Source of the DNA: Rhizaria sp. SCN 62-66
Taxonomy: Eukaryota
Reading direction: 5' to 3'
Length of the DNA: 46,083 nucleotides
NCBI GenBank assembly: GCA_001724265.1
Contig: MEDY01000242.1
Coordinates: 1-46,083, forward strand
Position 1 is the first letter of the stretch; each line of letters begins with the position of its first letter. A model generated the notes under the pieces. That model did no database searches. It worked only from the letters and a program-made list of their open reading frames with translations, and was not told the DNA's origin. The translations under genes and the position numbers were made by a program. Below are positions 4,401-45,684 of this stretch, piece by piece.

Positions 4401-7400
4401 TCACTGCCACGGTCACGCAGCGTCGCTGCCATTGGCCGGGGCTGGGCTTGCTCCCGCTACGAGCACTCGCACTCGTGGTGTTGAGATCAGCGTTTGGGCT
4501 AGAGTTCGTGATCGTGAACGTCGAATCTGCGTCTGCGTCCGCATCAGTGTCAGTGGCGAGAGGTGCGCGCGCGCGTGCAAGCAGCAGTGCGACGTGGGAG
4601 GGCGGCCAGAAGCCCGGCACCGGCATAGGCAGCTGCACCAGCGGCACGTGCGCCGGCATCCGGCTCTGTGCAGCAGCTGGGCTGTGGGCGCAACCGTGAC
4701 TGCGCGCAGCAGCGGGGGCGAAGCGGCCAACGGTGATGTGCGCGACCTTAGCCCAGACGGACTGCGCGCCCGTGCCGGGGCCAGACACGGTCACGCTCGC
4801 AGCCGCGGCGGCTGCGGCAGCGGCAGCGGCAGCTGCAGCGGCAGAGGAGGAGTAGACGGCCGCGGTCTGAGTGCGCGCTAAGGGGCGCCGCAGCGCAGGC
4901 GCCGCAGCAGCAGCTGAGTCGACGGTAACAGCACTCGCAGTGGGCGCACTCGTCGTAGCGGTCGTCATTGCTGTTTTCGCGTCATCAATATCGCCGACGC
5001 GCGCTTGGGAAAGCGACCTCTGCGCAGTCTGCTGCTGCAGCTGCGGTTGTTGCTGCTGCTGCTGCTGCTGCAGGTGTTGCTGCTCTTTGAGTGCGGGTAG
5101 CGGCGGGCGCTCCGCGAGAACCGTGTCAAGTGTGGCATCAAGCAGCCCGCGCATGAAGGGCATCTTGTAGGCCTGAACCCAGTAGCGGTGCACGCTCTCC
5201 GCCTCCGACGGCGACATGCCCTGCGGCGTCAGAGTGTCTGCGCGCACGATGCCCTGGCCCAGGTTGGTGTTGATCTCCAGCAACACCGCCTGCAGCAGAG
5301 AAAGAAAGGCGAAATCAAGGGAAGTAGATAACGTTTGGGATGATGAGGGTATGAAAATAGCGTGTTCGTACAAAAAATAATAATTTGAATAATACAAAAA
5401 TTGAACTCGTTCATCTCAATACTCGTACCTTGTTTGCGTCAGTGTCGTAGAGAAAGTCGTAGCCGAGCATCTGAAAGCTCACACGCGCGAGACCATACGG
5501 GATCAGCGCGCCGTTTTCCAGCGCCAAGGCGACTGCGACACGAGTGAGAAAATAAAAATAGAGTTAAAACAAATAAAGTGGGTAAAATATGGTCGGTATA
5601 TGTGTGAGGATTTGGTCAGTAATACGGATTAGCAGATAAAGATTTCGTTTTCGTCAGGTCCAATGAACGTACCAGTGTCCCTGATGATGGGGACGAACTC
5701 TGCAAAACAGGCGTCGACGAAGGCGGGCGCCAGCACCTGGTTGCCAAGCCGGTGCGCGAGGTACTTGCTCACGGTCGCGTCGAACCCCGTCCCCGCGGGC
5801 TCGTAGGGCGCCTTGCTGTGGTACAGCTTGAACAGCCGGCACACGTGCAGCGAGTAGCCGCCGCCTAAGGCGACCGCGCTGCTCTCACCGCCGGCGCTCG
5901 CGCTATCGTGCAGACCATTGGTTGCGCTCGCGCTCGGAGCGTTGCCCGTGTTCACAGAGTTGTTGTTGTTGTTTGTAGCGACAGCGTCATACACAACTGT
6001 AGCGTAGACACGGAAGTGGACCTTGTAGAGCTTCCCGCGCATGAGCGGCGCGCCCGAGTCCGAGGGAAAAGCGGACCGCGCGCGCGCCGACACGTCCGCC
6101 GCAAGCCGCGCCGCGACCGCGGGCCCGTAAGTCTGCACCGCCAGCGCCGCGGGCGGCGGCAGCTGGCCCAAAGCGGCCGCAGTCGGCGACGGGGCCGCGC
6201 TGGACGCGGCGGAGCCCGTGGCGGAGCTCGGGGCCAAGCTGCCGAGGCCTGCAGTCTGCCGCCGGGGGCTATGAGAGCCAGAGCCAGCGTTGCGCGGGCT
6301 CGGGGCGGGAGCTGGGGCAGCAATGCTCTCGCTCACATGCGCTTCAGTCGCCGACGCACTCGCCGCCGTCGTTGTCGATGTTGTCGTCTAAGGCACAGAA
6401 GTCATCGTCTTGCTGCCATCAGACGCAGAAGTCAACGGCTTGTTGCCATCAGACGCAGGTTCCTTACTCTCAGGTGTGGGCGCTTTGCCTTGCGATGCGA
6501 ACGCCTCCGCAGGCGTGTTGACATCCAATCCGCGCAGCGGCGGGATGTAAAAAGGCTGCTGCTGTTGCTGTTGCAAGCCAAAAGCTCCGCCCTTGCCATT
6601 AGTCTTCTTGACCGCCCCAGCAGCAGCAGTAGCCGCAGCAGCACCACCAGCGACCTGCTGCTTCCCCGCTGCGCCGTTGGCATTGCCACCGCTGCCCGCG
6701 CTGCTTGTGTCCGCCGCAGCGGTGTCGACGAGCGCTGGCCGCAGCACGCCGTCGAGCGCGGTGTCGCCCGCGCCACCGCAGCGAGCGGGCACGCTCTCGG
6801 CCTTGGCCGTGGCGCCCAGGAGCTCGCCGGGCACCGAGAGTGGCGCCGCGACGTACTCCTGGACGACCCAGGCGGCGTAAGGCCCGCCAGGAATGGCGTC
6901 GGCGCCCGCGCGGCAATGCGCCAGCACTGACAGCGCCAGCCGCGGGTCGCGCGGAACGACCAGCACGCCGCGCTGCTGCTGGCCCAGCGAGGGCTTCAGC
7001 AGCACAAAGCCGCGGGACGGGCAGCCCCAGTCGCCGCAGCACGCGGTCGCCGCCGCTGTCGCCGTCGCCGCTGATACCGCCGCTGGTGCTGGTGCAGCTG
7101 TTGTGGAGTGACTGTGCACGGGGCAGTGCGCGGGCCTGTAACTGCGGCCGCGGCAATGCGCGGCGGGCATGGGCCGGAGCCCGAAGCGCTTGGGCACAGC
7201 GGCCTGGTTGGCGGCGCCGGGGTGCGTCAGCCACTGGCGCACCGTGCAGCCGTCGGCGTCGGTGTTCGCGCAAGCGCACTCGGCTGCAGCGGACGCAACC
7301 GATGCGGGCTGGGCAGCCGCGGCGGCGTCAGGCCTCGGGGAGGAGTCGGTGTTGTTGCTGTTGCTGTCATTGCTATGGTCGTTGCCAGTCTTGCCATCGC

Positions 7401-9533
7401 TGTCACCCTGTTGCTGCTGCTGCTGCTGTAGTTTAGAACCTTGCTTTGCACTCTGCTTAGCAGGATCTTCCCCATTCTTGCCACTCGCACTCGAATTTGT
7501 CGTCGCCGCGTTGCTGTGGCACGGGGACCCCGCGTCGAGGCGCACGCGCGGCGGCCGGCGCGGCGCGTAGTCGCAGTCGATACCCCTGCCGCTGGCGCCG
7601 AGCGGGCCCGTCGAGGCCAGCAGCCGCAGCAGCGTCGCCAGCGCCGCCGGGTCGTCGGTGAACTCGGACAGCGGCGTGCCTCCGCGCGCGCCGGGACTAA
7701 CACCAGCGCCTGCTGTGCTGACAGTGACAGTCGTTGTTGTCGTCGTCGCAGCCGCTGTCTTGTTGCCACTCGCACTGTTCACACTCGCGCTGCCGTTGCC
7801 GTTGCCGGCACTGCTGTGCGCAGCCGAAAGCGCCTGGGGCGGCAGCGGCGGCGGCGGAGGCTTGACCGTGAGCGCGCGCGTCCAGGGGATGTAGGCGCGG
7901 CCGTGGCGGCGCAGCAGCGCGTCCATCTTGACCTTGTCGCCGAGGATCGTGGTGTTGGCGAGCCCGTAGGAGCCGCCCATCGCGAGCGCCAGCCACGGGT
8001 GCGCGCCCAAGCCCAGCGCCGCTGGAGCCGGAGCCTGGGACTGCTGCTGCTGCTGCTGCTGCTGTAGCTGCGCCGACGGCTGCTGTTGGCTTTGCTGCGG
8101 CTGCGGCTGCGCGGCCGCGTTTGACGCAGCCGCAGCAAAGGCGGCGTTGCCGCCCGCGGCCACCAATGCGATCGGCGGCGGCAGTCGGCCGGTAAGCGCG
8201 GGCGTAGTGCGCAGGCCGCCCGTGGGCGGGGAGAAGAACTGCTGCGAGGCCAGCGCCGTCGCGGGCGCGGGCACTGCGAAGGGCTGCGGGTGCCGCCCGA
8301 ACGCCAGCAGGGGGTTGCGGCTGGCTTCCACTGAGGCTGAGGCCGAGGCTTCAGTCGCAGCACGGCCGCCTGGCCCGCCGCCGTCGGGGGCAGCCGCAGC
8401 GCTGAGAGTCCGGTCGGCGTCCTCGACGTCGCCGTCGTCGTCGCTGCTGCTGTCGCCGCTGCTCGCATCGTCGTCGTCGTCGTCATCGTTGTTCTCTTCG
8501 TCGCCGGAGTCGGCGTCCTTGTCCCTGACTCTGCCCAGGTACGCGGCCGCCGCGCCCGCCGCCGCGTGGTCCCACACGCCCGTGAACGGTAGCCCCACCG
8601 CGGCGGCGCCCGCAGCGCTGCTGGCCGCGCTCGCGCCGCCACCGCCCGCCGACTGAGACTGAGGTTGCGGCTGGGACTGCGGTCCTGGGGGGGCGGACAC
8701 GGACCTGTAGGCGTTGGCGCCCGTGAGCGCAACGGCGGCGGCCGCCAGCGCGTGCCCCGCTGCCGCCACCGCCACACTCAGGCCCGTGCCGGCCTTTGCA
8801 GTCATGGACTCGCCGGAGCTTGAGGTGGGAGCAGACGGGGCACTGGAGCCGGAGGGCGACGGCGGGGGCAGCGGCGGCGCAGCGACTCGACTGCCGTGGC
8901 TGCTTTCGTCGCCGTCGTCGTTGTCAACAAGCACAACCACAGCCCCCGTCGCAGTCGCGTCGGACTGAGCGCTGACGTGGGCGTGTGCGCTCCCGTTCGC
9001 CGCTTTCCCTTTCACAGCCGCCGCCGCCGCAGCTGTCGCTGCAATCGATGCAATCGGCGCGACTCCAGCGGCGTGGCTGCCACTGCCGCTACCGCCGCCC
9101 GTCGCACCCGCGGCCCGAGGCGCGACAAGCGCGCCGAGCCTGGCCCCCAGCGCGGCGGCGTCGAACGCGGCGGCCGCGCGCTCGCCGGCGCGCAGCGCAC
9201 GCTGCCGGTGGACCTCGGCCAGCAGGCGCATGGCGCCCTTGCGCGGCCCGCCGTCGGTGTACACCAACAGCAGCGGCGCGCGGACCACGGCGGGCGCGCG
9301 CGTAACGGCAAGCAGCACGCGGCCGAGCGCGTCGAGCGTCTGCAGCGGCGCCGAGTTGGGCCGCGGGGTCAGGCGGCGCAGGCTGAGCCCGCGCGCGGCG
9401 AGCGCCGCGGGCCGCCGCGACTCGAGCAGCGCGGCGTCGATCTCGGCCGCGAAGTAGAACGATGCGGGCAGGTAGAACACGTGCGGGTCTGCGGCGACGG
9501 TGGAGACGAGCGCGCCCACATTACTGCCGCCGC

Positions 9534-9564
<31 letters not shown>

Positions 9565-9822
9565 ACTGCTGGTTGGCGTAGCTGTCGTGCTGTTGAGGTG
9601 ATTGTTGCTGTTGTTGTTTGTGGGGCGGGGGGTCGCGGCAACGGGAACAGCATAAACGGCTAGCGGGGCAGCGGCAAAGGCCGCTGTGGACGCAGTCGCA
9701 GCCGATAAGCCGGTCGTCGTCGCGGCCGTCGCCACTGCTGCCGCGGCGGCGTGCGTTACTCCTCTCACGGCCACGGGGGCAGCTGCCCGGGGCTGCGAGG
9801 GCGCAGGGGCAGGCTGAGACAT
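1444..9822 (-). CDS. Tubulin-tyrosine ligase-like (TTL/TTLL, ATP-grasp) protein, ~2699 aa; exons 9822-5673, 5532-5429, 5289-1444; one in-frame TAG at 6390-6388
   Basis: TTL motifs occur in the expected order: LGDKVKM...YIPWT, LLKPSLGQQQRGVLVV, WVVQEYVAAPL, KVHFRVY, SFQMLGYDFLYD, LLEINTN. ORFs 10062-6388 and 6336-5629 are in the same frame across a TAG. Two GTACG..CAG introns (5672-5533, 5428-5290) join the last motifs in frame. Ends in TAA TAA. The start at ATG 9822 is inferred from where GC-rich coding begins; subfamily not assigned. Confidence 0.85.
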
Positions 9823-11316
9823 CGCTGCGTGGCTGAGGCTCAGTGAGGAAAAAAGAAAACACAAGGGCCAAGTCAAGCGACTGGCGTGGGGGAGCGCGCG
9901 GGCGGGCGAGGGGCACCGCCAAGGAGCAGCCTGTAGGGGTGATATCATAGCGGAATTGTTAATCGGGCGTCCCGAACGATGGTGTGAGTGTAATAGAGAA
10001 TAAACAAGGGAATAAATAGACTTACACGCCAGATATACAAGGTACATCACAAGTATTGACATGAGTAGCCGTTATGCGTTGCTGGAAGTGGGTTTTCACA
10101 GCATTGTGAGATGCTGTTTAAAAGCAGGGCATCCCACGATGCAGTTATGTATCTACTGATGCACAGAAGATGTTACAGACATAGGAATAGTAATTCGTAA
10201 AAGAAAAACTCAATTTGTTCAAGATAACCCAGCCATAGTGTCAGTGACGGAGCATGCATTGATATTTCGAACTCTCAAAACAGCCGTTCTGGTGAGCCAG
10301 TCTTGCCACACAACGGTCATGAGGTACAAGATTTCAGGAAACAGCGTGTAACATAGGATTTTTAACTTTTAATGGTTTCAAAACAACCGTTAACACACCT
10401 AAGCTTACAGTTTAAAGCATGCAGATCTATTAATTCCCAAACCCTGTTGTTGAATGGCGAGATATTCACTGTACGTGTGACGGAATGCCACTGTGTCAAT
10501 GGACAATATCAGCAGATTCGACCACATACTCGCAACAATACGGCCAAGATAACAGTATTGAGAAAGGCACATAGTGCCACGTTATTGTTATTTAACGGTA
10601 CTTGTTAATTAAGTTGAATAAGCCTTGTTTGATACTACAGGTAATATGAGAGCATCATTAGTCCATTTCGCTCAGTTTTACTATTCATGTTGCGATGCAA
10701 TCACAGTTAAAGCTTTTCAAGATAAAAAGGACTACGTGCCGCAAGAAATTTACATGAAATAAACTATGCGCGCTCAATTTCTTCAGATGCATTAGTATAC
10801 ACCCTTAGAGCCTGGTTATGCACTCACTTACACATCGTGTCACGTTGCGACTTCCGGTTCAAATAGAGTGCAGTTCATTGTAACAAGTGCTAACCAATAT
10901 GGAATATCGATTTTTATTCATATTCAGAGTACATGTTTAACAAAATAGACGAATTTAAGACAGAGAAAAATATGTCTTCAAAATATCGTGGTAACAGAGC
11001 AGAAGTGAACGGCGGTTGAGTAATCCTTTTAGTCGACCGACGGGCTGAGGGTTGTCACCGACCGTGGTGGTGTTGGGGGGTGGGCGACGTGGCTCTATAA
11101 TTGGCCATCAAGCTTCATGTGCGTGCTGCTCTAAAGAATGAAACTTTGCATGCAGCAGCTATAATGTAGAATTTTCTTTCTTTTCACTGACTTTTGTGAC
11201 TTTATCTCGATGAAATCAAAGTGAAATCCCTCATTTTAATCTCACGTGCGCCCTTCCTTCTGCTCCCTTACCTCGTCCACCTCTTCCCGTTCGTGCGCGC
11301 ACCAGAAAGAGCCCCG

Positions 11317-13434
11317 ATGCGCCTGTTCCTGCGCTACGTTGCTCTGGCCCTTCTGGCTGCGGCTGGCCTGGCGTCCGCCGCGCCTGGCTCGCACGTCGTG
11401 GACCACAGCGACGTCTTCGACGCCGACAACTACTTCTCCGACACCCCTGTCGTCCGCGAGTGCGGCACCGAGATGTCCATCACGGACGTCAACCCGGCCT
11501 TCGCGTACGCCACCGTGCCGACCGAGGTTGTGGTCACCGGCTGCAACCTCGGCGGCGGCGACTGGACGTCGACCGTGCACATGCTCAACGTCGCGTGCAC
11601 GGTGACCGAGGCCACCGAGACGCAGATCAAGTGCAAGACGGGCGTCACTGACACCGCGGCGGGCCTCGGCGCCGTCCAGGTCACGCGCGCCAACGACGAC
11701 ACGGGCGCGTCTGAGTCGGTCTCGCGCCGCAACATGTTCATGTACTATCAGCCCAAGGTGGAGTCTGTCCACCCCGCCACCGTCGACGCCAAGGCCGGCG
11801 CGACGATCCGCCTCGTCGTCTCGGGCATGTACTTCGACGACTACGAGGTCTCGTTCGCGGGCGCCAAGGCCACCAAGGTTGAGATGAGCGAGACGTTCAT
11901 GCTCGTCACGCTGCCCGAGGCCGGGCTCACCGTTGGCTCGCTCGACATCACCATTTCCAACGCTATGCTCACCACGCCCGTGCTCGTCAAGAGCCGCGCG
12001 CTCGCCGTCACGGACTCCGGCGCCGAGCCCTTCGTCAAGTCGCTGCTGCCGACCTGGGCCGTGGGCCCCGTGCCCGCGCCCACGTTCAAGCTCGTCCTGG
12101 GCCAGGTCCCCGCTGACGTTGCCGCAGTGTCCGTCACCTTCGCGGGCATCAAGGCCAAGAACGTCAAGCTCGACGCCGCGACTGGCGTCATCACCGGCGC
12201 CACCCCCGCGTGTACCGCGGACACGTGCCTCGGCACGCGCCTCGTGCTAGTCTCGCTCGACGGCAAGGAGGTCGGCTCCTGGACCTTCACCTACCTCGCC
12301 GGCCCCGTCACGGGCACGGCCAACGTCTACCCCGGCCCCGCGCTGCCGTGCAACTACAACCACGACATGCTCGTCACCTTCGCCGGCTTCGACGGCAACG
12401 TCCCCGCGCTCATCAAGCTTGGCGCCTGGGAGCCCGAGGGCGAGCACAACCTCGTCGTCGTCTCCAACGGCTTCCGCTTCGACCTGGCCGCCGCCGACGC
12501 GCCCTACGCCTCGGGCGCGGTGCAGCTCATCGACGACGCCGGCAACGTCGTTTACGACGGCGGCAAGTTCACGCACGGCCCCGCCGTCGACGGCGTCGCC
12601 ATCACGCGCGTCATCTCGAAGCCCATGGAGATCGGCGCCGAGACGGCCGTGACCTTCTACGGCTACGGCTTCACCGAGCACGACGTCAAGTCCTTTGTCG
12701 CCGTCGGCGCGCGCACCGCCGCCGCGGCCGCCGGGGGCAGCGCCGACGTGACCCTGGACCTCACCACTGCGGGCGTGACGCAGTCGCGCGCGACGGGCTA
12801 CCTGACCGACTGCTCGGACTTCGAGGACCGCTGCCAGGCGGGCTCCTTCGACGTGGCGCTCTTCAACTCCAAGAACGAGCGCGTCGCCGTCGTCCCGGGT
12901 GCCGTCGTGCTCCAGTACAACAACAACTTCGGCATCCTTGCGTCCTACACCTTCCTCGCCTCGGCCAAGGACAAGACTCTCAAGGCCGTCGCCGCCTTCG
13001 CCGCGGCCGCCGCCGAGCTGACTGCTGTGCCCGCCGCGCGCGTCGCCGCGGGCACAGTCGCGGGCGACACGTTCACGGTGCAGGTGCTTCCCGCGCACGG
13101 CTCCATCCAGCCTGACGCCGAGACTCTGGCCGACAGCATCGAGGTCCTGGTCGCGGACGAGCTCTCGGACCTGCACAAGAAGGTTGCCGGCGTGGCCACG
13201 GTCGTGGGCGAGCGCCAGACGCTGCGCCGCTGCGGCGCCAACGACTACCGCGTCAAGTGCGGCAACGACGACGGCGGCAGCGGCGGCGACGACCACACGT
13301 GGATCTACGTCTGCGTCGGCATGGTTTGCGCCGCCATCGTCGCCGGCTTCGCCATCTACGTCTGCAAGAAGCGCGCTGACCAGCGCCGCGCCGTCGGTAT
13401 CCTCGACGATCACTACTCGCAGATCAACGAGTAA
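11317..13434 (+). CDS. Type I membrane protein with tandem IPT/TIG (Ig-like) domains, 705 aa
   Basis: Signal peptide MRLFLRYVALALLAAAGLASA. Repeated IPT-like starts (ITDVNP..EVVVTGCNL; VESVHP..IRLVVSG; VKSLLP; ITRVIS..VTFYGYGF). One hydrophobic helix WIYVCVGMVCAAIVAGFAIYVC followed by KKR, then a short tail ending YSQINE. Strong C/G-ending codon bias; TAA stop; no introns seen. Confidence 0.85.
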   Translation: MRLFLRYVALALLAAAGLASAAPGSHVVDHSDVFDADNYFSDTPVVRECGTEMSITDVNPAFAYATVPTEVVVTGCNLGGGDWTSTVHMLNVACTVTEATETQIKCKTGVTDTAAGLGAVQVTRANDDTGASESVSRRNMFMYYQPKVESVHPATVDAKAGATIRLVVSGMYFDDYEVSFAGAKATKVEMSETFMLVTLPEAGLTVGSLDITISNAMLTTPVLVKSRALAVTDSGAEPFVKSLLPTWAVGPVPAPTFKLVLGQVPADVAAVSVTFAGIKAKNVKLDAATGVITGATPACTADTCLGTRLVLVSLDGKEVGSWTFTYLAGPVTGTANVYPGPALPCNYNHDMLVTFAGFDGNVPALIKLGAWEPEGEHNLVVVSNGFRFDLAAADAPYASGAVQLIDDAGNVVYDGGKFTHGPAVDGVAITRVISKPMEIGAETAVTFYGYGFTEHDVKSFVAVGARTAAAAAGGSADVTLDLTTAGVTQSRATGYLTDCSDFEDRCQAGSFDVALFNSKNERVAVVPGAVVLQYNNNFGILASYTFLASAKDKTLKAVAAFAAAAAELTAVPAARVAAGTVAGDTFTVQVLPAHGSIQPDAETLADSIEVLVADELSDLHKKVAGVATVVGERQTLRRCGANDYRVKCGNDDGGSGGDDHTWIYVCVGMVCAAIVAGFAIYVCKKRADQRRAVGILDDHYSQINE

Positions 13435-13779: not shown

Positions 13780-16700
13780 TCACCGCTTGCGGTAGTAGAA
13801 GATCTGCCCCAGCACGGCGACGTTGAGAGCGATGCTGGACCAGTACCCCGCGAGGATATTCACGTCGTTCTGCCCCTCCTTGGCCGAGGTCCAGAGGCGG
13901 ATGAGCGAGCCGCAGAGGTTGACCGCAAACGACGTTGGGTTCAGCATGGCCGGGTCCTTGCTGCGGTAGAGCTTGGCCATCTGCGGCACGCGCGAGAAGC
14001 AATAGAGCGCGACTCTAGCCATCTGCAGCGCCCCCAGCACGCGCGGGAAGCGTAGCAGCGGCAGCAACGCCACGGGCAACGCGAGGGTCCCCGCGGCGGC
14101 CAGACGGCCGCGCACACCCTTGCCGAAGAGCAGGAAGGCGACGGCGATGGCGAGGTTGCCCGCGCCCAGCGAGAGGTTCTCGCCGTAGGTGCCAAGCGGG
14201 TGGCCGAGGCGCCACGAGTAGAGCGCGGCGACGACCTGCGTCGCGAGCTCCATGGCAAACATCGGCAGCGACAGCCCCGCCACGGAGCGGTGCGCGAAGA
14301 CCTCCGCGATCTGCGGCGCCTTGGAGAGCAAAGAGCCCAGCGAGATGGCCAGGCCGAGCAGCTTCGCTACGAGCTTGCTTTTGCCGCCGCCGCTGCTCGC
14401 AGCCACAGCGGTGTCAGCGGCGCTCTTGACTGCGTTCGCGTCCTTGCTGCCGGCGACAGCGACCGAGGCGTTGGCGCCAGCGAGCGCAACGGCAGGCTGC
14501 GGCTGCACGGGAACGGCCAGTGACGACGACGACTCGGCCACAGCAGCCGCCGCGGGCGCAGCACTGTGCGCAGCAGCAGCACTGAGAGCGCTGGCACTGC
14601 GAGCGGGCGAGACGCCCGCCGATGCCTGGCGCGCGGCGGCGGCCGCGGCGGCCTTGGTCTTGACCGCGACCGCGACTGGAGACATGCCGCCGAGCCGCGC
14701 AGCCGCCCCAGCAGCGGCAGCGGCGGCGGCGGCAGCGCTCGAGTCGGCGCTGGGGTCGGCCGTGGCGAGCGCCATGTCGGAGATGGCCATCGTGACAAAC
14801 TCGCTCTTGGTGGGCGCGCTCGCAGTGCTGCTCTTTGCGCTGTTGGTATTGTTGTTGCTGAAGCCGGCGGCGGCGAAGGTGGCAGTGGCGGCCGCGGCGG
14901 CAGCGGCGGCGGCGGTCTCCGCATCCGCAGCGGCGGCAGCGGCGGCAGCGGCGGCAACGGCGGCTGCAGCGGCGACGGCGGCGGCCGACACGGACGCCGA
15001 CGCCGACGCCGAGTGCTGCTGCGACGTAGAGAGCTGTGCCCCATGCTGCGAGGCGGGAGCAGCGCCCGCGGCGGCGGCAGCGACGGCGATCGAAGACGCC
15101 GCCGAGGGCACGCGCGCCGGCGCGGGGGGGTTCGGGGACCGCAGGCCGGCGCCGACGCCGACGCCGGCGCCCACGCCAGGAGCAGTGGCCGCCGCGGGAG
15201 TCGCGGCCGAGACGGAGCCGGGCTTGTTGCCCGCGGCGGGCTGCTGTGACTTTACGGCGGGCGCAGGCGTGCGCTGCTGCGAAAACGACTTGAGCGCCTT
15301 GGCGTTTTTCGGCCCCTTGACGGCGGCCTTGTTGCGTCTGCCGCTGCCCTGCCGGCCGCTGACATTGTCAGCCGCTGTCACAGTTGCCTTGCTGCTACTG
15401 GTGTCCGGATTGGCTCTCGAATTCTGGTTTTTGTTGTTCGTATCGGCATCAGCCTTCGCATCAATCTTCACACCGTCAACACTGTCGCCGTTGTCGTTGC
15501 TGCCAATGTCGTCACCGAACGCGCCAGCGCCATCGTCGTCGTCGACGTCAACGCCGTCGTCGCCGTCGCCGTCGACGTCGCCGTCGTCCCCGTTGTCATC
15601 GCAGTCGTCGTCGCCGTCGCCGTCGCTGGCCGCCGCTGCCGCAGCAGCCGCCGCCGCCGCCGCGGCTGCCGCCGCCGCCGCGCCTCCGGAACCGGCACCC
15701 GTGCCTGCGCCCGCAGCAGCAGCGGCGCCAGCACCAGCGACGGTAATCCCGCCGTGGGAGCGACGCGCGCGGCGCCCGCTGCCGCCGCCGTGGAGACCGT
15801 GGCCGTGGCCGTGGTGCACACGAGGGTGGCCGTGAGCAGAGTAACCGTTCGCGGCGCTGGCGGCCGTCGCGCCGACAGCGGGCTCGCCGCTAGCAGAAGA
15901 CACAGCTCCAGCGCCTGCGCCTGCGCCAGTGCCAGTGTCAGAGCTGGCGCCAGCGGCAGCGGCCGCGGCAGCGGCAGCGGCCGACTTGCCCGCGGCGCCC
16001 ATGGCTGTCACGGACCGCCCCGCGCCGCCGCTGGCCGCGCCGAGCCCAGCGCCGCCCTGCATCCCATGTGTTCCGTGGGCGCCGCTGCCGCCCGCGATGG
16101 CCTTGACGCGGGCTGCGGCACCGGACCGCGAGCTGGGGAGGTCCTTGGCGAGCGTGAGCGTGTGCGAGTGGGAGAACGAAGTCAGGTCGCTGCGAGCGAG
16201 CTCGCTGCGGCACGCGCCGCCGGTCGCGCTCGAGTCGCGCCGACTGCCCAGGCTGCCGCAGTCGTCGTCGTTGTCGTTGTCTTCGGCGCCAGCGACGTTG
16301 TGCCCCCGGTCGCGGTCTTGCTCATGCTCACGGTCATGCTCGCAGTCCCGGTCGCGGGCGAGGTCGCCAATGCTCGCACAAGCCCCAAGACCCGCACTGA
16401 CAGCGTTGTTGAGGTGGTGAAGATGGTGATGGTCGTCGTCTCCGTTGCTGTTGCTGTGTGTATTGCTGCTGGTGTGGCGATTGTTGGCCCCCGCGCGCTG
16501 GTGGTTGCTGCTGCGCGGGCTGCCGCTGTGCACGCTGTTGCTCGCGCTATTGACGCTGTTGGCGGTGTGGTTGAGGTTGCGCAGCGCCGCCGCGGCCGGG
16601 GGCAGCCGGTGCGCCGCGGCGACGCTGCCCGCGACCGGGACGGACACGGGCATTGCGAGCGCGGCATCGCTGTGCGTGTCGTTGTTGTTGGCGTTGTTGG

Positions 16701-19599: not shown

Positions 19600-19635
<36 letters not shown>

Positions 19636-34600: not shown

Positions 34601-36864
34601 GGCAGGATCAGCGCACACGCGCGTCTCGCACACCGTGATCTCGCAGTTGCTGTCATCGCACTGCAGCCAGTCGCACGGCACGATCGAGCACGCGCGAGAG
34701 CCGGCGCTAGAGCTTGCGCTAGAGCCAGAGGCCGCCGTGCTATCGTCGCTGTTTGAAAGACTATGGCTGTGGCTTTGAGCGGAAGCGAGGACCGTGGCCA
34801 GCGGCCGAGTGAAGCGACCGCAGACGGTCACGGTGGGCGCGGCGGCTGACTGGGATGAACGGGACACGATGTAATGAGCGCCCCCGTACACGACGCCAGT
34901 CGCTCTGCCGCTGCCACCGGCATCGCTGCGGTTCACAGCGCCAGACCGGTGACTGTGGACCGAGGCTAGGGAGGCTGCGGCTGCGGTCGCGAGAGGAGCG
35001 GGGAGAGAGCGGGCCCACTCACTGCTGAGGCGAGAGTCACCACTCGCGCGAGCACTTGCGTTCCTGTGAGCATCGACATCGTCGTCGGTGCTCCCGATAG
35101 TGCTGCCATGGGTCTCCTTATGAGAGCGCGTAAACGCGGTGACGATGGAGACGGCGGCAGACAGCGACAAGAACGAAGACGCAGAAGCTGCTTCATCGTT
35201 GTAGTTAGCAGTAGCAGTAGCACTGGCACATACTCTGGCACGGGAGCTACTCGTTGCCTCGCCAGCCTCATCGCTCATGACCTCACTGTCAGCACCAGCG
35301 CCAGTGCCAGTGACCGTGGTACGCACAGGTACCTTGGGAACCGCCGGTGCCACGGGGGCGGTGCGCGAGTGCAGCGACGTCAGGATAACCGCGATCGCAC
35401 GACAAAGCTCAGCCACACTTGGCGAGTCGCCAGAAGACGCAATAGCACTGGCATTGGCGCTGGCATTGGCACTCGATGATGATGACTGCGCATGTGACTC
35501 CGCCTGGGACTGCGCGTTATCGCCGTTGTTGTTAGCGAATAGAAGCGCGAGCAGTGCGTGCGGCGCCGGGGTAGGCTGTGCGCACAGGGCGTCCCCGCAC
35601 TGCGGCCCGCAGTCACTGCTGCAGTCGCTAGTATTCGAGTTGGAGCGAGAGTTCGTGTTTCCGTTGCCGTGTCCGTTACGCAGGGCAGCGGTGGCGCGGG
35701 ATACGAGCTCCAGCACTACACCGTTGTCGCTTTCACGTTTGGCGTACTGGGCGCTGGCGCTGGCGCTGTTGCAGAGAGCAGAGAGCGCGGCGGAGGCGGG
35801 GAGCGGCGGGGCGAGCGAGTCTACCAAGCTATCGCTCTCGCTGTCAACAGTGACAGCAGAGTTGCTCACGTCAGCGTCGGTGGCAACGGAAACGGCAGCG
35901 CTGTCGTCATGGCCATCACTCATGCTCGCACTTGCATTGGTATTGTTTACCTTGTTGCTGTTGCTGTTGGAGGACATTGTGGCCGACACTTGACACGCGA
36001 GCAACCCGCAGGCGTCGCAGCCCAGCTCGATCCCACTGCACAGCCCACAGTCACCGTTCTGCTCACAGTCACCTTGCTGCTCACAGTCACTCCCTTGCTC
36101 CCCACAGTCGCTGTCGCTGCCTTTGCCCTGGCCCTTGCCCTGACCCTGAGCGAGCGCGAGCGCAAGCGCGGCCGAGACGGCGGCCAGCACCGCGCGCCCG
36201 GGGCGGCCGCTGGCGCGCCAGACTGCAGCGTGCGCATCGCAGACGGGGAAACCAGCGCTGGAGTCCGCCGCGATGCTGGAGCAGGGCTGGCCACAGGGGC
36301 GGCCGCGGTGGGGGCCGGAGGCGCGGGGCCACAGGCAGCAAGGACTGGAACAACGAGTGACATTCGCACTGGCACTTGTATTGGCACTGGCACTAGAGCT
36401 GGAGCCCACGCCTGCACTTGCACTGTCACTTGCATTCTCGCTACCGCTGACACTGCTGGAAACAGCGTTGGTGCCATTGCTCTCGGCAGGGAAGCGAGCC
36501 GCAAGCGCGACGACGGCATCCGCGAGCGCCAACAGTGTCGCAGCCGCGTGTGGGCTCGCAGTCGTCTCACGGGCCTCGGCGTCCGTGTCGCTGTGAGCGC
36601 TGGTGTTGTTCACCGAGGGGCCCGCCACAGAAGCGATTAGAGCCGCGGCGTCAAGCACAAGAGGAGACGCTACAGCGTCGTCGACACTGGGACGGCTGGG
36701 GGCAGTCGTAGCATTTCCGCTGGGGCGACTGTGGGCTTCGAGCCAGCGCGCCAGAGAACTGGGCGCGGCAGAGCAACAGACCAGTCTCCGCGGCCCCCGC
36801 ACTTGACTCGCACTCAAACCCGCGCTCGCACTCGCGCTAGAACCAGCGCAAGGGTTTCCACTGT

Positions 36865-36925
<61 letters not shown>

Positions 36926-38449
36926 CCACTGCGATGCTGGTTGGAACAGCCCCGTGAGGGCCCCGGCTCTGGCGCCGAGTGACGCCCCCACCAGGTCGCC
37001 GGCCGAAGCGTAGCCCGCGAGCGCGGCCAGCTGGGCGAGCGCGGCAAGGTCGGCCTCCGAGATCTCGGATATGGCGGCGCCAGAGCCAGTCCCGGTGTCA
37101 GCGTCAGTGCCGGGGCCAGGGCCAGAGTGCCCTGCATGTGCGTTAGCGTGTTCGCCGCTTGTGCCAGTGTCAGTGCCAGTGTCAGGGTCAGTGTCGAGAT
37201 GAGAAAGTGTTGATGTATGCGCTGGTGTGTCTGCCGCCGCGACGAGGCCCATGCTGCGCGCGACCTCGAGCAGCTCGCGCTTCTTCACATCGAGCGCGGC
37301 CAGGCGCGCGCCCAGCGCTGCTGCGGCCGCCGCAGGGGAGAGAACTAGTGTAAAGGAGTCGTAGGGTGAGTCTTCGCAACTGCTGACGCTCTGCGCATCG
37401 CCGTCGTCGTCATCATTGTCGTCATTGCAGTTGGCGTTGCCGCTGCAGGCACCGTTGTCATCGCAGTTGTCGGTCATCATGGTCTTGTCGGTCTTGGTGT
37501 TGTCATCGGTCCGCCCGTTCGCCTAATTCACTGTGATGTCGTCATTGCCGCCGTTGCTACTGTCATTGCCGTTGTCGTTGGCGTTGGCGTTGCCGGTGGA
37601 ATTGCTCGTATTGCCACTCTCACTGCTCCGCGCCTACCGCGCGCCAGTGTCCGCAGCAGCATCAGCGCCAGCGCCAGTACCAGCGCCAGCTCCAGCGCCA
37701 GCGCCAGTGTCAGCGCCAGCGCCCGCGCCAGCGCCAGCAGCGCCCGCAGTGTGGCTGTAGCCGACAGAGCCGGTGAACGACCCAATGGCGGCGGCAGCGG
37801 CAGCCGCGGCAGCAGCGGCGGCAGCGGCAGCGGTGGCAGCAGAGTTGGCGTCAGAGGTGGTAGAGATGGTCGTGGTGCTGCTAACACTCTACAGCGCCTG
37901 CGCCTGCGGCTGCTCCTGGCCTGAAGTCGGCGTCTGCGTCTGCGTCTGAGACTGGGGCTGAGGCTGAGTGGACGGCTGCTGCTGTTGCTGCTGCTTGGCC
38001 GCCATCAGAATCGCCTGCGTCTGCGCCTCCGCTTGGGCGAGCGCCTGCACCTGCTGCTGCTGCAGCTTCTGCTGGTAGTCATACTGGCGCATCTGCGGTA
38101 GCGCTGGCACTAGCGCGCTCACGCCCGCGCTCCCGCCGGTCACGCCGCTCGGCGCAGCGCCACTGAGGCTGCCGACAGCGCTGCTGTGGCCGCCGCTGGC
38201 GCCGGGGCCGAAGCTGCTGCCGCTCAGTAGAGCGCCGTTGGTACCGACGACTCTGCCCGGGCCCAAGCCGGTACCCACGCCCGCTCCGGCACCCGAGACC
38301 CCGACGCCCGCGCCAGAGCCGGTGACCGTGGAGGCCGAGGACAGCGACATGGTGAGCGCGGGCGACGCCGTCGGCAGCGAGGGGTAGGGGTATGCGGCGC
38401 CGTAGGTTCCAGTCGCATGCGTCTGCGGACCGGTGGCTGAGGCGCCCGA

Positions 38450-38481
<32 letters not shown>

Positions 38482-41104
38482 CGCCATAGGTAGCGGCGGC
38501 GGCAGCGGCGGCGGCGGCGGCGGCGACGGCGGACGCGGTCGAGGTGTTGGCAGCGGAGCCGTAGCCAGAGCCGGCGCCGTAGCTTCCGCCGCCGTAGCCT
38601 CCGCTGCCGTAGCCGCCGCCATTGGCGCCGCCATAGTCCGACATCTCGGTGCCCGCGGCCGCGCTGCCGCCGCTCGAGGAGGAGTGCATGAGCGCGGGCG
38701 CGGCGCCCGAGTGCGAGGTGTGGCTGACAGGCCCGCCGGTCATGGAGCTGTAGCGGCCGGCCAGGTCCGCCTTGTCCATGATGCCGCGGTTGATCATCGA
38801 CTCCATCTCAGCCGTGAGCGGGATCGTGAAGAGCCCGCAGTGTACCTTGGTGCGGTCGATCGTCGGCAGGTGGCGCTTGTTGTAGATGCGCGACGTCGCC
38901 GTGCACGTGCTCCAGCGGCCGCTGTTGTTATTGCACATGAAGAGCGTGCCCTCCTGGATCGCCTTGGCGCCCGACAACAGCTCCGTGGCCGTCGACGAGC
39001 CCTCCTTGAGCCAGTGCTGGTAATGGCGCCGGCATACGGGCGAGTTGCGGTGGCGCGGCGCATCGCGGCACAGCTCTCCGGGCCGGTCGCGGCGGCAGAT
39101 CCACAGACAAGTGAGGTCGTCGTCGATGAGCACCGTCGTGTAGCCCGTCGCGATGGCGTGCGCGACGGCCGGGGAGACGTAGTGGCCCGACTGTGAGGTC
39201 AGCGGCAGCGTCAGCGCGGTGCTCATGCCCGAGTGGCCGCCGCCGTGCCCGCCCATGCCCATGCCCATCCCCACGGCACCGCCCATGCCCATCCCCATAC
39301 TCATGGCGCTGTTGTACTGGCTCTGATGGTGACTCTGCGCGGCCGCGGCGCCGGAGGTGTTGGAGGCCATGGCGAGCTGGTGGTGCAGCGGCACTCTGGC
39401 GCTGCCGACCTGGGACCCGGGGTGACCGTGGGCCCCGGGGTGGCCGTGGGCAAGGGCCGCGGTGAGGGAGCCGACGCCGCCCACGGCACCCATGCCCACG
39501 TGTCCCCCCATGCTGGGGGCGCCTATGCGGTTCGCGAGCCCGCCCGGCGCACCAGGGTGACCGTGGGCCTGACCGTGGGCCTGGACGTGGAGGCCGCTGC
39601 CGCCGGCGGCGCGCGGCAGGGCCGCCTGTTTGGCCGAAGCGCGGGCACCAACCGCTGCGTTGACGGCGTTGGCCGAGGCGATGAGGTACTGCGTGTTCTG
39701 ATACGCGATCGCGGCGGGGCTCTTGCTGTCGGCGCCGCCGAGCCCGCCGGCGGCGCTGACGTTCATGGTCATGCTGTTGGTGCTGGGGTTGTAGCTCATC
39801 GACGCCGCGCCAGGAGCCGCCCCCGCCGCTGCCGCCGCCGCAGCAGCATCGGCGTTGGCATTGAGACCAGCGGGATTCGAGTTCTTGCTGATGGTTGCAT
39901 TCACCAACGCAGCAAAGGCATTCTTGTAGTCCGCGTCAGCGCCAGCGCCAGCGCCAGGTGTCAGCTGCTGCTGCTGGCCCTGGGGGAATTGCATCGCCAT
40001 AGCCTGCTGCAGCAGCATCTGCTGCGCAAGAATCACTTGCGCCTGCTGCTGCTGCTGTTGTTGCTGCTGCTGCTGCGCCATCGCGATCATGTTGGCCAGC
40101 GCTGGGTTGCCCGCGGCGGCCACGGCGGCGGCGGCGGCGGCCCAGCTCGAGCCCGCGGTCCCAGTCGCCGCGCCGGTGCCGGCAAGCGCGTTGGAGAGCG
40201 CGGAGGCGTTGGCGACGTCGGCGGGGGTGGCGGCGGCGCCGGCGAGCGCACTGGCCAGGGCCTGGTTCGGCTGCGGCTGCTGCTGCTGTGGCGTGGGACC
40301 GGGACCTGCAGCGGCGGCGGCCGAGGAGATGCTAGCGCCGCCGGTGGCGCCCGCGGCGGAGGCGCGCTGCAGCAGCAGCTGGAGCTGCGCGACGGCGGCC
40401 GCCGCAGCCTCGGCGGCGGTCATCGGCGCGGCGTCAGTGGCACGGGGCGCGGTCGCATTGAACGCAGTCAGCTGCTGCGGCTGCTGGGGCGGGGCCTGGG
40501 TCTTGACAACCGGGGTCGCTTCAGCGGCGGCAGCGGCCGTAGCGACGGCGGGCTTTGCGGCAGCAATGCCGGAGGTTTGTGCGAGGATTGATGCGACCAG
40601 CGACACCGACTGTTGCAGCGATGACGCCGCCGCGGCCGCTAACATGGGCGCTGCCGCAGGCGCCGCAGCGGGCGCCGCGGCAGAGGTGCCGGGGCCGGCG
40701 GCGGCGGCGGAGGCGGCGCCGAGAAGCAGCGACGAGAGGGCGGCCTGACGGGCCGAGGCCGAGGCGCCAGCGGGGGCAACTGTGACAGCGGGAGCTGCGA
40801 CAGCGGGGGCTGCAGCAAGAACATTAACAAGAGTCGGTGCAGCGGGGGCAGCAACGGGGGCAGGCGAGGCAGCGACGGCGGGGTCAGACTGAGCGACAGG
40901 GGCATTGTATACAGGCGCAGCGGCAGCCGCAAATTCAGGAGCTGCGGCAGCAGCCGCAGGGGCAGCAGCAACATGGGCAGTGTATCCAGGCGCAGCAGCA
41001 GCATCAGGGGCAGCGTCGGGTGCAGCGGGGTCGGCCGCGGCTGCGACAGGGGCAGCAAGAGCAGTCATATCATGGCCGGGGGCGGCCTCTGTGGCGGAAT
41101 TCAT
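31655..41104 (-). CDS. Giant (~3149 aa) probable nuclear regulator: two CCCH-like motifs, Cys-pentad repeats, two AT-hooks, His-rich C-terminus; in-frame TAGs at 37891-37889, 37636-37634, 37525-37523
   Basis: ORFs 41104-37889 and 37480-31655 are in the same frame. The GC-rich gap between them reads as typical low-complexity protein with three TAGs and no TAA/TGA. AT-hooks KRKRGRPPK and RRPRGRPR; polyQ and polyA tracts; TAA stop. Function is inferred only. Confidence 0.75.
34150..34420 (-). repeat. Coding degenerate 15-nt repeat giving Cys every fifth residue (DCAVT/DCGVQ/DCAAN...)
   Basis: GCGCAGTC/CCGCAGTC recurs on the + strand at roughly 15-nt spacing; translation on the - strand is DCGVANCIVTDCAVTDCAVADCGVTDCGVQDCAANACADPAC... 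Confidence 0.85.
36866..36924. repeat. Perfect hexanucleotide microsatellite (CGACGC) x ~10 encoding a Ser-Ala run
   Basis: Read directly from the sequence; lies within the 31655-41104 gene. Confidence 0.9.
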
Positions 41105-42300
41105 GATTTAGAGGCGAGGGGAGCGCGGGCGGAGGCGGACGCGGGGACGGCAGAGCAGCCGCGGTGGGCTGGGAAGCGTGGGACAGACCGGCGCGGCAGC
41201 GGGGGGGAAAGTGCTGCGGAACCGGGGGACGGTTTATCGAGGCGCTAACGGGGCAAGGAGAGGGACGAAAAGGATGAGAAGTGAGTCGTGATGTGAGTAC
41301 GCGTGTTAGAAAAAAATTTAGCAGCGCTGGGGCAGTGTACATGAGACGCAGAACTCGCGTCGAGGAGGTTTGCCGCTCGCTGTTTGGGGCGCAACTTGAT
41401 TCGCTCACAATGATGCATACATGACTCATGCATGCATACAAAGCAGCACCAGCACGAGAGTGAGGCAACAAATTTGAGAATGTCCAAAACATTTACAAAC
41501 GGCGGAACGTAGACATGGAACCGTGCCCGATTAGTCCGAGGTCCACGGTTCCCTTGGTCAGGTGGCTCGTCCTCGGTGATCGACCCGTTGGCCATTGTCT
41601 TTAACTACTGAAGTAGCATCATAGTTATACCGAAGAAATAACGCGACATTAGAAGTAAAAGCACAGAGGCCGGAAATATGTGGATACACAGTACATTTTC
41701 AAATCCGAGGCCGGACATTTGACTCTTACCGCACTTTTTCAAACTTCGCGAGAGAAGTTCGCGGCTGGGCTTAGGTCTCGCGAGGGCGCTCCTACTCGCC
41801 AACCCGCGGTTCGCGAAAACCATGGGTCGCTCACGGTCATCTCCGAGATGAGCGAGAGATCGCGGGGAGTCGAGTGATATGAGTCAGGAATGAACGTTTT
41901 GTGCACTGCGCCTTTAATGAAACGGAGTGCTTTTATTATGTCTAGTTAGAAAAATGACTTCTTGTTGTTGGGGCTTAATTATGTAGCAACTGACGTTGAA
42001 ATGAGCTCGCAATGAGTACTTTTCGATGCGCTACTACGCACCGTGCCGCGTCACCCAACGTCACTCGCTCTTTCTGTCTCTGCACTCTCCGTTTGCCTTT
42101 ATGACATTGCAGCAATATCCACTGAGCCCATTCGTTTTCAAACTTGGCTGGTGTTTGCACTGCTTCCACATACCTGTCACTCTTGTGTTTTATTGCCCCT
42201 TAACTTTGTCTCACCCCCGTCAATCGTTGCACATCCCGACTCGCTCCTATCGTTCTCCGTCTACGATTACTGCTCTCTCTTACTTAGCGTAGGAACCACC

Positions 42301-43602
42301 ATGATGAGTCTTCGCAAGGCTATCGCTGGCGCTGCCCGCGTTGCGTCCAAGGCAGGCGTCACCGCCGTTCCTGTTCCCGCCCGCGCCCTGTCGTCGAGCA
42401 CCGCCGGCCTCACCACGGCCGAGATCATCGCCGACCTCCCCAAGGAGGTACGTTCAAGCCCACGCAAGCGTCACTACTTTGCAATGACATATTATTAGGC
42501 TACCGCACGCAATATATTCACTATTTCACTTATTTTATCTCCCTATGCCGCTCATTCTCCTCCTCTCCGTAATCTTGGCCTTCGCTCTATATGTCCGCTT
42601 GTTTGCTTGCTTTCTCACTCCCGATAACAGAAGATGAACCTCGTGACCGCGATCAACAGCGCCATCGACGTCGCGATGAAGACGGACCCCACTGCCTGCA
42701 TCTTTGGCGAGGACGTCGCGTTCGGCGGCGTTTTCCGCGCCTCGGTCGACCTCCGCGAGAAGCACGGCAAGGACCGCGTGTTCAATACCCCGCTGTGCGA
42801 GCAGGGCATCATGGGCTTCGCCGTCGGGCTCGCCGCCGAGGGCGCCACGGCCATCGCCGAGATCCAGTTCGCGGATTACATTTTCCCCGCGTTCGACCAG
42901 ATCGTCAACGAGGCTGCCAAGTTCCGCTACCGCAGCGGCAACCAGTGGAACGTGGGTCGCCTCACCATCCGCACGCCCTACGGCGCCGTCGGCCACGGCG
43001 GGCACTACCACTCGCAGTCGCCCGAGGCCTACTTCACGCACACGCCCGGACTCAAGGTCGTGGTGCCCCGCGACCCCGTTCAGGCTAAGGGCCTGCTGCT
43101 GGCGTCGATCCGCGACCCGAACCCCGTGGTGTTCCTGGAGCCCAAGGTGATTTACCGCGCGGCGTCGGCCGAGGTGCCCGTCGGCGACTACATGCTGCCG
43201 CTGTCGCAGGCCGAGGTGATGCAGGAGGGCACCGACATCACGCTCGTCGGCTGGGGCACCGAGCTGCGCGTGATCCAAAAGGCCGCCGACAAGGCCAAGG
43301 CGGAGCACGGCATCAGCTGCGAGATCATTGATCTGCGTACGCTGCTGCCCTGGGACTATAAGACCGTCTGCGACTCGGTCCTCAAGACCGGCCGCATGGT
43401 CGTCGCCCACGAGGCCCCCGTCACGTCCGGTTTTGGCGCCGAGATCCTCGCCACCGTGCAGCAGAAGTGCTTCTACTCGCTCGAGGCGCCGCTGCGCCGC
43501 GTCTGCGGCTACGATGTCCCGTTCCCGCTCGCGTTCGAGCCCGTGTACATGCCCGACTACCTCCGCGTTTACGACGCCATCATTGAGACCGTCAAGCCGT
43601 AA
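42301..43602 (+). CDS. BCKDHB: Mitochondrial branched-chain 2-oxoacid dehydrogenase E1 beta subunit, 372 aa; exons 42301-42447 and 42631-43602
   Basis: Motifs [69 protein letters not shown]. The N-terminus resembles a mitochondrial presequence (Arg/Lys/Ala/Ser-rich, RALSS). Phase-0 intron GTACGT..CAG; TAA stop. Confidence 0.97.
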
Positions 43603-44355: not shown

Positions 44356-45684
44356 TTACAGTGTGCGAAACAGTTCCGCAGGCACACCGGGCACCCCAAT
44401 GCGCACAGTCACCCCGCTGTCGCTGCTCGCAGTCAGGGCCGCCACCGCGTTGAGCCACGAGCCCAGTTTGCGCACCGCCGCCGCCGCCGCCGCCGCGGTC
44501 ACTGAGCGGCTATCGATGCTCACAGTCACTTGCTGGCAATTGCTGCCGCCCACAGCCGCTTTGTTGTGATCGCCGTCAACCGCGAGCGGAGCCAGCAGTT
44601 TGCGACCGCCACAGGGGTGTAAAGCAACGCACAGTGTCTCTGTGACCGGGTGGGGCAGCACGGACAGAGGCGGAAACGTATGTGAATGCGCCGATAAAGA
44701 CTGTGAAGATTGTGCCTCTGCCGACGACTGTGTAATCTCATTCTGCAGTCCTAACCATAAGTCCTGCTGTGACGCCGCTGTGACAGACTGCGGCTGTGAG
44801 ATATTGTTGTTTTTGAGCTGCGGATTGCGGTTTGCTAGCGCAGCACACAGTACTGCCGGGAGGACAGGGACTGCGGTGCCGGCGCCAGCAGCAGTGGCGC
44901 CAGCGGCGGTGGCGGCGGAGAGACACAGCATGGGGGCCTGGTGCGCGGCGCTGTAGACGACGTGACACGTCAGCATGTGCTGCTCAGGGCCGCTAGTGTC
45001 ATTGTCGCGCAGTTGTGGCGCGCCGCCGTCATCGTTCGTGGCACTGTTGATTGAGGTAACTATAATCGCGTCTGGGTCTCCTTGGGCGAGCTCAGCGGGA
45101 AAGAAATCGATGTCATCGCCAAGCTCAAAGTCAGCCAAGGCTGCTGTAGCGGCAGATGAGGCGGCTGCAGAGTCTGTAGGGAGCCACGAGATGGGGACAG
45201 TGGCTGCCAGGTAGTTAGTCTGAGGAAGGAATAAATGATAAGATATCGATGTGATATGTAAGTCAATGAAACAGAAAAAACGTTATATAAGAGAGAAGTC
45301 CATGTAACCAATAATCAGAGACGCAATCCTTTGTCTGGTTCTGACGATTGTTGTCAATTCGGCATGGCTTGGTGGCATATGGTGACGACTCAATTCTACC
45401 CAGGGGTGATGAAGATAAATGGCTGAAGAGCAAGTGTCAGAGACGTACGGGGGGCTGCAACAGTAAACCAAACCCACTAGGGATGTCAGTATGGGGCGTC
45501 ACCCAGCGCCAATGCACACTGGCTTGCGCAATCACCTGCGCAGCTTGACAGAACTGAGACGAACATCACGGAGGCGGATTGACATTATGAGACAGATATT
45601 TTAAGACACAGTATGAAACAATAGATGCATAATTTTGATCCAACGTACTTCTTGATACGAAAGTCCCTAAGAAGCGATATCCAT
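44356..45684 (-). CDS. ATG10: Autophagy E2-like conjugating enzyme ATG10, ~334 aa; exons 45684-45649, 45553-45449, 45219-44356; probable in-frame TAG at 45669-45667
   Basis: Motifs CHVVYSAAHQAPMLCL, HPVT..VALHPC (catalytic Cys) and LGSWL. Splicing two phase-0 GTACGT..CAG introns gives the N-terminus MDIAS*GLSYQEFCQAAQ..HWRW, which resembles ATG10 N-termini. The 5' exons are less certain than the main exon. Confidence 0.8.

Follow-up and report, generated by a model that had tools for sequence, protein, structure and literature searches.

Positions 1 to 46,083 of contig MEDY01000242.1, deposited as Rhizaria sp. SCN 62-66 (GenBank assembly GCA_001724265.1), raise the question of whether UAG, normally a stop codon, is read as an amino acid in the organism from which this DNA came. 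The whole stretch of 46,083 nucleotides (nt) is referred to here as the window. A first-pass annotation had proposed that UAG is sense while UAA and UGA remain stops, on the strength of eight in-frame TAGs in five unrelated genes. All eight reported coordinates hold a TAG (seen as CTA on the plus strand where the gene runs on the minus strand), and seven of these are in-frame (6388, 20537, 23920, 29101, 37523, 37634 and 37889), housed in four open reading frames (ORFs); the remaining site and the fifth "gene" were wrong. For seven of the eight sites sense decoding is the best explanation, and we consider it likely that UAG is decoded as sense, with UAA and UGA terminating, in the organism of the window. 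The sites are as follows, with base composition given as guanine-plus-cytosine (GC) content.

6388..6390, minus strand: TAG no. 1; GC 0.69 over the following 150 nt; the frame stays open for another 252 codons
20537..20539, plus strand: TAG no. 2; followed by 121 Ala-rich codons, with downstream GC of 0.79-0.86 that falls to 0.41 only past the TGA
23920..23922, minus strand: TAG no. 3; inside one leucine-rich repeat (LRR) unit
29101..29103, minus strand: TAG no. 4; overlaps the hexamer GTACGT within GGTACGTAG
37523..37525, minus strand: TAG no. 5; in ORF 31655-41107
37634..37636, minus strand: TAG no. 6; in ORF 31655-41107
37889..37891, minus strand: TAG no. 7; in ORF 31655-41107
45667..45669, minus strand: reported eighth TAG, rejected; past the end of the uS8 gene, in non-coding AT-rich DNA

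The ORFs were called with TAA and TGA as the sole stops, and the four that bear TAGs are intronless, GC-rich and very long.

5629..10071, minus strand: ORF of 1480 codons, TAA end, TAG at codon 1228
18260..20905, plus strand: ORF of 881 codons, TGA end, TAG at codon 760
21397..29931, minus strand: ORF of 2844 codons, TAA end, TAGs at codons 277 and 2004; RNI-type leucine-rich repeats
31655..41107, minus strand: ORF of 3150 codons, TAA end, TAGs at codons 1073, 1158 and 1195

Over the nine long ORFs of the window (12,368 non-terminal codons) the in-frame stops are seven TAG, zero TAA and zero TGA, which gives a UAG frequency of 0.57 per 1000 codons. The four TAG genes hold all seven TAGs and no TAA or TGA in 8,355 codons; the other two frames of their coding strands contain 274 TGA, 85 TAG and 65 TAA (339 TAA plus TGA). 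No frameshift was found in the four TAG ORFs, 25 kb in total, in line with what had been stated earlier. We compared the seven TAGs with the 11 recognizable gene ends of the window by Mann-Whitney tests (n=7 vs n=11). Over the following 150 nt, GC measures 0.57-0.79 for the TAGs vs 0.31-0.47 for the true ends (p=3e-4), and the distance to the next in-frame TAA or TGA is 121-2567 codons vs 0-129 (p=4e-4). All 11 TAA and TGA ends coincide with a fall in GC from exon to spacer, whereas no TAG has such an AT-rich spacer. A codon-usage model trained on TAG-free genes only scores frame 0 of the coding strand best in 11/11 segments before, between and after the TAGs, with one near-tie, against the opposite strand, in the 121 Ala-rich codons past 20537 (-4.80 vs -4.83); this TAG is the weakest of the seven sites. 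From these data we can conclude that the seven TAGs lie inside protein-coding frames that continue unchanged. GC-rich coding past the TAGs, as had been reported, is thus found at all seven, and family-like coding at 23920 only.

At that site the TAG stands mid-unit in a single RNI-type leucine-rich repeat, LRTITLRGNALP-TAG-SAWATLAPALAHAPRL, and the unit is complete only with the TAG codon kept. An exhaustive HMMER search with the LRR stretch (801 residues, read through the TAG) returned 125 proteins at E<=1e-3, and more than 100 LRR homologues align as one continuous segment (query about 382-535) over the TAG position at residue 405; each homologue segment that reaches this position has a sense residue opposite the TAG. 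Standard-code gene calls break at the same place, as P0136 stops at 404 and P0137 restarts at 471. The residues opposite the TAG (D 61, E 49, S 38, A 27, P 19 ... Q 6) show that this site, the sole alignable one of the seven, is a variable LRR position that points to no single amino acid. A search of representative proteins with the LRR gene gave paralogue-level LRR proteins only. An AlphaFold2 model of a 321-residue LRR stretch, predicted from the single sequence, shows a visible strand-helix alternation; its mean predicted local distance difference test (pLDDT) score of 41 is too poor for use.

The remaining sequence around the TAGs returned little. In the four TAG proteins, or in the pieces flanking the TAGs, there are no Pfam families at E<=0.01, and at E<=1 only sub-threshold LRR hits appear. 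A search for orthologues of the TAG proteins with 50-90% identity returned the window's own fragments only, and a search for internal paralogues of the TAG neighborhoods gave low-complexity matches only. The protein of 5629-10071 is low-complexity, rich in Ala, Ser and Gln, and without a Pfam family; a tubulin-tyrosine-ligase-like C-terminus split by the TAG was considered for it and rejected, having no support from Pfam or ESM Atlas.

The genes of the window close with TAA or TGA. The features that supply the ends, in addition to the four ORFs above, and the two introns that could be verified are listed here.

1444..5415, minus strand: ORF of 1323 codons without TAG, TAA at the GC drop
11200..13434, plus strand: IPT/TIG-domain gene without TAG, TAA end, GC at third codon positions (GC3) 0.92
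13780..17724, minus strand: PQ-loop gene of 1314 codons without TAG, TGA end
30323..30887, plus strand: URM1 gene, two exons visible, end ...HGG-TGA
30524-30769, plus strand: URM1 intron, 246 nt, GC 0.46, GTACGT...CAG
42301..43602, plus strand: BCKDH E1-beta gene, TAA end; exon 2 ORF 42628-43602
42448-42630, plus strand: BCKDH intron, 183 nt, GC 0.45, GTACGT...CAG
44356..45282, minus strand: ORF with an Autophagy_act_C match, without TAG, TAA end
45991..46083, minus strand: ribosomal protein uS8, last 30 codons, TAA end; Pfam Ribosomal_S8, profile 98-126 of 126

The recognizable ends number 11, of which eight are TAA, three TGA and none TAG, in place of the seven TAA and three TGA of ten counted earlier; the absence of TAG stands. 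UAA is the preferred terminator (8/11), and UGA is used as well (3/11). Two of the ends are anchored by homology to the end of a Pfam profile, namely Urm1 (...HGG-TGA, 96/96) and uS8 (...GFVY-TAA, 126/126). The ends are set off by a patchy base composition, in which blocks of 60-80% GC (the long ORFs) are separated by spacers of 31-47%; exon GC is 65-80% vs 31-47% in introns and spacers, and GC3 reaches 0.92 in the TIG gene.

Three of the gene ends carry splice-like sequence. The terminal TAAs of the TIG and BCKDH genes each lie within GTAAGT (gaGTAAGTc, 13430-13437, and ccGTAAGTa, 43598-43605, both on the plus strand), which resembles a 5' splice site; a further short exon is possible in both genes, and the true stop codons of the two are therefore not fully certain. 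In ORF 5629-10071 a GTACGT lies 44 nt ahead of the TAA (5629-5680, minus strand), so that the last codons may be intronic and the real C-terminus may lie elsewhere.

The BCKDH gene, whose presence had been noted earlier, is that of the E1-beta subunit. A tree of BCKDH-beta places the window among at least 9-10 unnamed environmental sequences that form a well-supported clade, with a Shimodaira-Hasegawa-like approximate likelihood ratio test (SH-aLRT) value of 96-98. The only named link of this clade is a GILI01 sequence from the alveolate Colponema vietnamica, at an unresolved fork (SH-aLRT 90), and this one gene may hint, weakly, at a connection to Colponema. The closest BCKDH-beta proteins from named organisms, which belong to several supergroups, each share about 70% identity with it, and a fungal affinity is not given by this weak, single-gene tree.

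The nearest retrievable relative is represented by L001 and L002, two samples of one organism that match at 99.99% identity. In BCKDH-beta they share 81-82% identity with the window, and their GC is 52%. In this relative the ERO1 gene (Pfam ERO1, E=1.3e-93) ends ...AVKKDEL-TAG (L001 7310-7312, minus strand), and because a KDEL-type endoplasmic reticulum retrieval signal directly precedes it, the TAG is a genuine terminator. Other long ORFs of L001/L002, encoding an mTERF protein (1189 codons) and a CKK-domain protein, are without internal TAG. Judged from this gene end and these frames, UAG keeps its standard meaning as a stop in the relative, and a change in UAG, if real, would therefore be specific to the sub-lineage of the window, which in the BCKDH-beta tree consists of the window and a 90%-identical sequence from the Joint Genome Institute (JGI). 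The independent origin suggested by the first-pass annotation is plausible on the same ground, namely the KKDEL-TAG with which ERO1 closes in the closest relative that could be retrieved.

There is also a large GC shift between the two organisms, with 65-80% in the exons of the window vs 52% overall in L001/L002.

How would UAG come to be read in this lineage? By analogy with other UAG-only codes, a tRNA with anticodon CUA would read UAG and not UAA, and it would be accompanied by an eRF1 with weakened recognition of UAG. The window itself contains no tRNA genes (ARAGORN; Rfam gave no other match either) and no gene for eRF1. A recent and sparsely populated reassignment would fit the observations, because UAG is rare, is found only in fast-evolving, largely disordered proteins, and is a stop in the relative. 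We propose, tentatively and at somewhat less than an even chance, that the window shows UAG at the outset of its change from stop to sense, in a non-ciliate protist lineage not sampled before, that of its BCKDH-beta clade. It would have followed the split from the 52%-GC relative, perhaps together with the rise in exon GC, and UAG would so far occur only in fast-evolving disordered proteins.

Several observations weigh against reading UAG as sense at all. In the relative whose BCKDH-beta is 82% identical, TAG is a true terminator. Six of the seven TAGs lie in low-complexity sequence without a homologue, and no TAG gene has a Pfam family. The TAGs at 37523, 37634 and 37889 cluster within 122 codons (369 nt) of one 3150-codon ORF. 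TAG 29101, in GGTACGTAG (29101-29109, minus strand), overlaps GTACGT, the 5' splice motif of this genome. Of the eight contig pieces listed for the poly(A) RNA run X5, none extends across a TAG; they flank TAGs on both sides in both large genes, and one (31559-31829) spans the terminal TAA of 31655-41107. This poly(A) library may contain DNA, and parts that it leaves uncovered are not evidence.

The statistics are also less severe than a TAG-only pattern might suggest. In a nonsense-mutation model built on the in-frame codon content of these ORFs (CAG 238, TCG 196, GAG 124 and others), 55-65% of possible new nonsense mutations are TAG, and so the chance of seven TAGs out of seven is P = 0.016-0.047, which is not vanishing. 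The five TAG-free ORFs (4,013 codons) hold no TAG, vs about 3.4 expected if the rate were the same (P about 0.035). The sample is small, at 46 kb and 11 genes, and the absence of TAG from 11 gene ends is only weakly informative. A pseudogene reading is countered less by this statistic than by 25 kb without a single frameshift, TAA or TGA and by the coding signal that carries on past the TAGs.

We weighed four alternatives, each of which accounts for the full set less well than sense decoding does. The first is that UAG is leaky or ambiguous, remaining a terminator that is read through by a natural suppressor or by context- or position-dependent termination of the type found in Condylostoma, karyorelicts or, for UAA, Blastocrithidia, such that long and truncated proteins coexist. 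This would agree with the ERO1 gene of the relative, which ends at KKDEL-TAG, and with the rarity of TAG and its confinement to disordered proteins able to tolerate truncation; moreover, full and partial decoding are inseparable with 11 gene ends. Against it, TAG is found at 0/11 of those ends, and one gene would require three successive readthroughs. Programmed readthrough depends on a stimulatory context such as C at +4 or a CARYYA-type motif. The bases after the seven TAGs are A, T, A, T, G, G and A, with C at +4 in 0/7, and no common motif or other readthrough context is shared over the seven. We regard leaky decoding as unlikely on balance.

The second alternative keeps the standard code and takes the TAGs as true stops, either recent nonsense mutations in dispensable low-complexity genes or boundaries between genes that happen to share a frame. 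ORF 31655-41107 could be two genes parted by the TAG cluster, as three TAGs in 369 nt are followed by ATG-ATG; standard gene callers do split these genes, no family is known for any of the four proteins, and TAG is the commonest possible nonsense product, at the P value given above. However, there is no frameshift, and zero TAA or TGA in 8,355 codons, and coding composition and codon usage persist past every TAG. An AT-rich spacer of the type that follows all 11 true ends is absent. TAG 23920, moreover, cuts an LRR repeat mid-unit, and assemblies of different studies, dated 2015-2025, show the same TAGs. Taken together, these findings make the standard code an improbable explanation.

Still less probable, in our view, is that the TAGs are removed at the RNA level, by lying in short, in-frame, GC-rich introns or by being edited (e.g. 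adenosine-to-inosine, UAG to UGG). The attraction of splicing is TAG 29101, which is part of GGTACGTAG and overlaps the GTACGT with which both verified introns begin, a hexamer found just three times in about 36 kb of coding strand. The introns of this window are of another kind, however. The presence of introns, reported earlier at 95-250 nt, is upheld by the two that could be verified, and these measure 183 and 246 nt, are AT-rich (GC 0.45-0.46), start with GTACGT and end with CAG. No intron-like AT-rich stretch surrounds, and none follows, any of the seven TAGs, and the nearest CAG past 29101 would make an intron of 28 nt that shifts the frame. We could not explain the coincidence of GTACGT and TAG at 29101. 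At 23920 the LRR unit is whole only if the TAG codon is retained. As to editing, filamentous ascomycetes correct stops by A-to-I mRNA editing of UAG to UGG. A requirement for this in 4/11 genes would lie far above the level of fungal stop-correcting editing, and the BCKDH tree, weak as it is, does not put the organism among fungi.

An assembly or sequencing error, such as CAG misread as TAG, might be suspected in a metagenome contig, yet it has next to no chance of being the explanation, because independent Logan assemblies of runs from other studies repeat four of the five TAGs compared with zero differences and leave the fifth uncontradicted. This comparison of contigs addressed 23920, 29101, 37523, 37634 and 37889 in four runs. 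Contigs of run X3, from a different study, carry 23920, 29101, 37523 and 37634 without a difference, and a contig of run X4 also covers 29101; 37889 is not covered by any listed piece of another run, and no alternative base at the five TAGs was reported in any of the four. The protein fragment that ends at TAG 23920 is also encoded on a JGI contig, and the restart fragment on six contigs.

Runs from bioreactors, wastewater and activated sludge, belonging to several studies dated 2015-2025, contain near-identical DNA, and the BCKDH E1-beta of the window is on record solely in metagenome assemblies, on a European Nucleotide Archive (ENA) contig of 46,526 nt and, as a near-identical copy, on a 220,695-nt contig that bears the same genes. 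An exact 40-mer had no match among the genome contigs searched, and a BCKDH scan of genome contigs returned bacteria only, at <=68% identity. The source of the contig is an uncultured eukaryote of bioreactor and wastewater samples.

If UAG is sense here, the window would be a further case of a UAG-only code, beside those of Iotanema, the sainouroid rhizarian exLh and phyllopharyngean ciliates. In Iotanema spirale (Fornicata) UAG is reported to encode Gln, and in exLh Leu; a tRNA(CUA) together with a subtle change in eRF1 was proposed as the mechanism in both (Panek et al. 2017, PMC5304391). The named sequences in our BCKDH-beta comparison included none known to be from either organism. The window would resemble Iotanema and exLh in being non-ciliate, in having UAG alone as sense and in using UAA as the dominant stop. 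UAA is reported as the preferred stop in these two (PMC5304391) and in phyllopharyngean ciliates (PMC11687900). The window differs from them in keeping UGA as a stop (3/11), in its strongly GC-rich exons and in encoding a mitochondrial BCKDH. The evidence also differs in kind, as the codes of Iotanema and exLh rest on transcriptome-wide data with an assigned amino acid, whereas the window is 46 kb of DNA.

Precedents among ciliates are more numerous than the first-pass annotation had listed. Phyllopharyngean ciliates are described as having undergone three independent UAG-only events, one to Leu (three TARA taxa) and two to Gln (Hartmannula, Trochilia), with suppressor tRNA(CUA) genes found; since close relatives keep the standard code, these changes were taken to be recent and repeated (McGowan et al. 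2024, PMC11687900). The likeness to the window would extend to a UAG-only code found via metagenome assemblies, a preference for UAA and a relative on the standard code. The ciliates, however, use UAG widely across the proteome, in contrast to 0.57 per 1000 codons here. The window would also seem to lie outside the ciliates, since multi-kilobase GC-rich genes on a contig of at least 46 kb are unlike a macronuclear genome.

Two other kinds of code place standard stop codons in-frame inside genes. Context-dependent stop/sense codes are described for Condylostoma, karyorelicts and Plagiopyla, and for UAA in Blastocrithidia (PMC11687900); in these the same codon also terminates, whereas in the window TAG ends 0/11 genes and only one stop is affected. 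In Amoebophrya sp. ex Karlodinium veneficum all three stops are reported as sense (PMC6394959), and in the window TAG alone is involved. Amoebophrya is a non-ciliate alveolate, and the BCKDH-beta of the window groups weakly with that of the alveolate Colponema. A GC-rich non-ciliate eukaryote, or one from wastewater, that reads UAG as sense did not turn up in the literature, supplements being outside the scope of the search. The points that would distinguish the window from these precedents are its apparent position outside the ciliates, its GC-rich exons, its very sparse use of the codon and its relative on the standard code.

Few nuclear codes split UAG from UAA, and those that do are relevant to the question of why these codons tend to change as a pair. 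Should UAG be sense in the window, the close standard-code relative would allow tRNA sets and eRF1 to be compared before and after the change, and the case would test the ambiguous-intermediate against the codon-capture route. If the reassignment is indeed at an early stage, the lineage would be a natural system in which to watch the capture of a freed stop codon. There is also a practical consequence, as standard callers split such genes at TAGs (P0136 and P0137), and public metagenome protein catalogues therefore hold truncated fragments of them.

The eighth reported TAG, at 45667, was rejected as coding. It lies between the TAA of uS8 (45991) and the next gene, with a downstream GC of 0.43, in a frame of 48 codons whose best Pfam match (E=0.098) indicates no credible family. 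As it stands in AT-rich non-coding DNA, the number of TAG genes is four and not five. In the same region, the 129 codons immediately following the uS8 TAA (45604-45990, minus strand) run in the same frame without TAA or TGA and with three TAGs, at a GC of about 0.43; this frame has no family match and is probably due to chance, yet it is unusual for such a composition.

Two further observations concern ORF 31655-41107. TAG is packed more densely at 37523-37891 than even in the out-of-frame readings, where it numbers 85 in 16,710 codon positions. At 36073-36076, contigs of runs X4 and X5 carry 1- and 2-base deletions at very high summed depth, which probably reflect a low-complexity repeat common to other organisms and not a frameshift allele.

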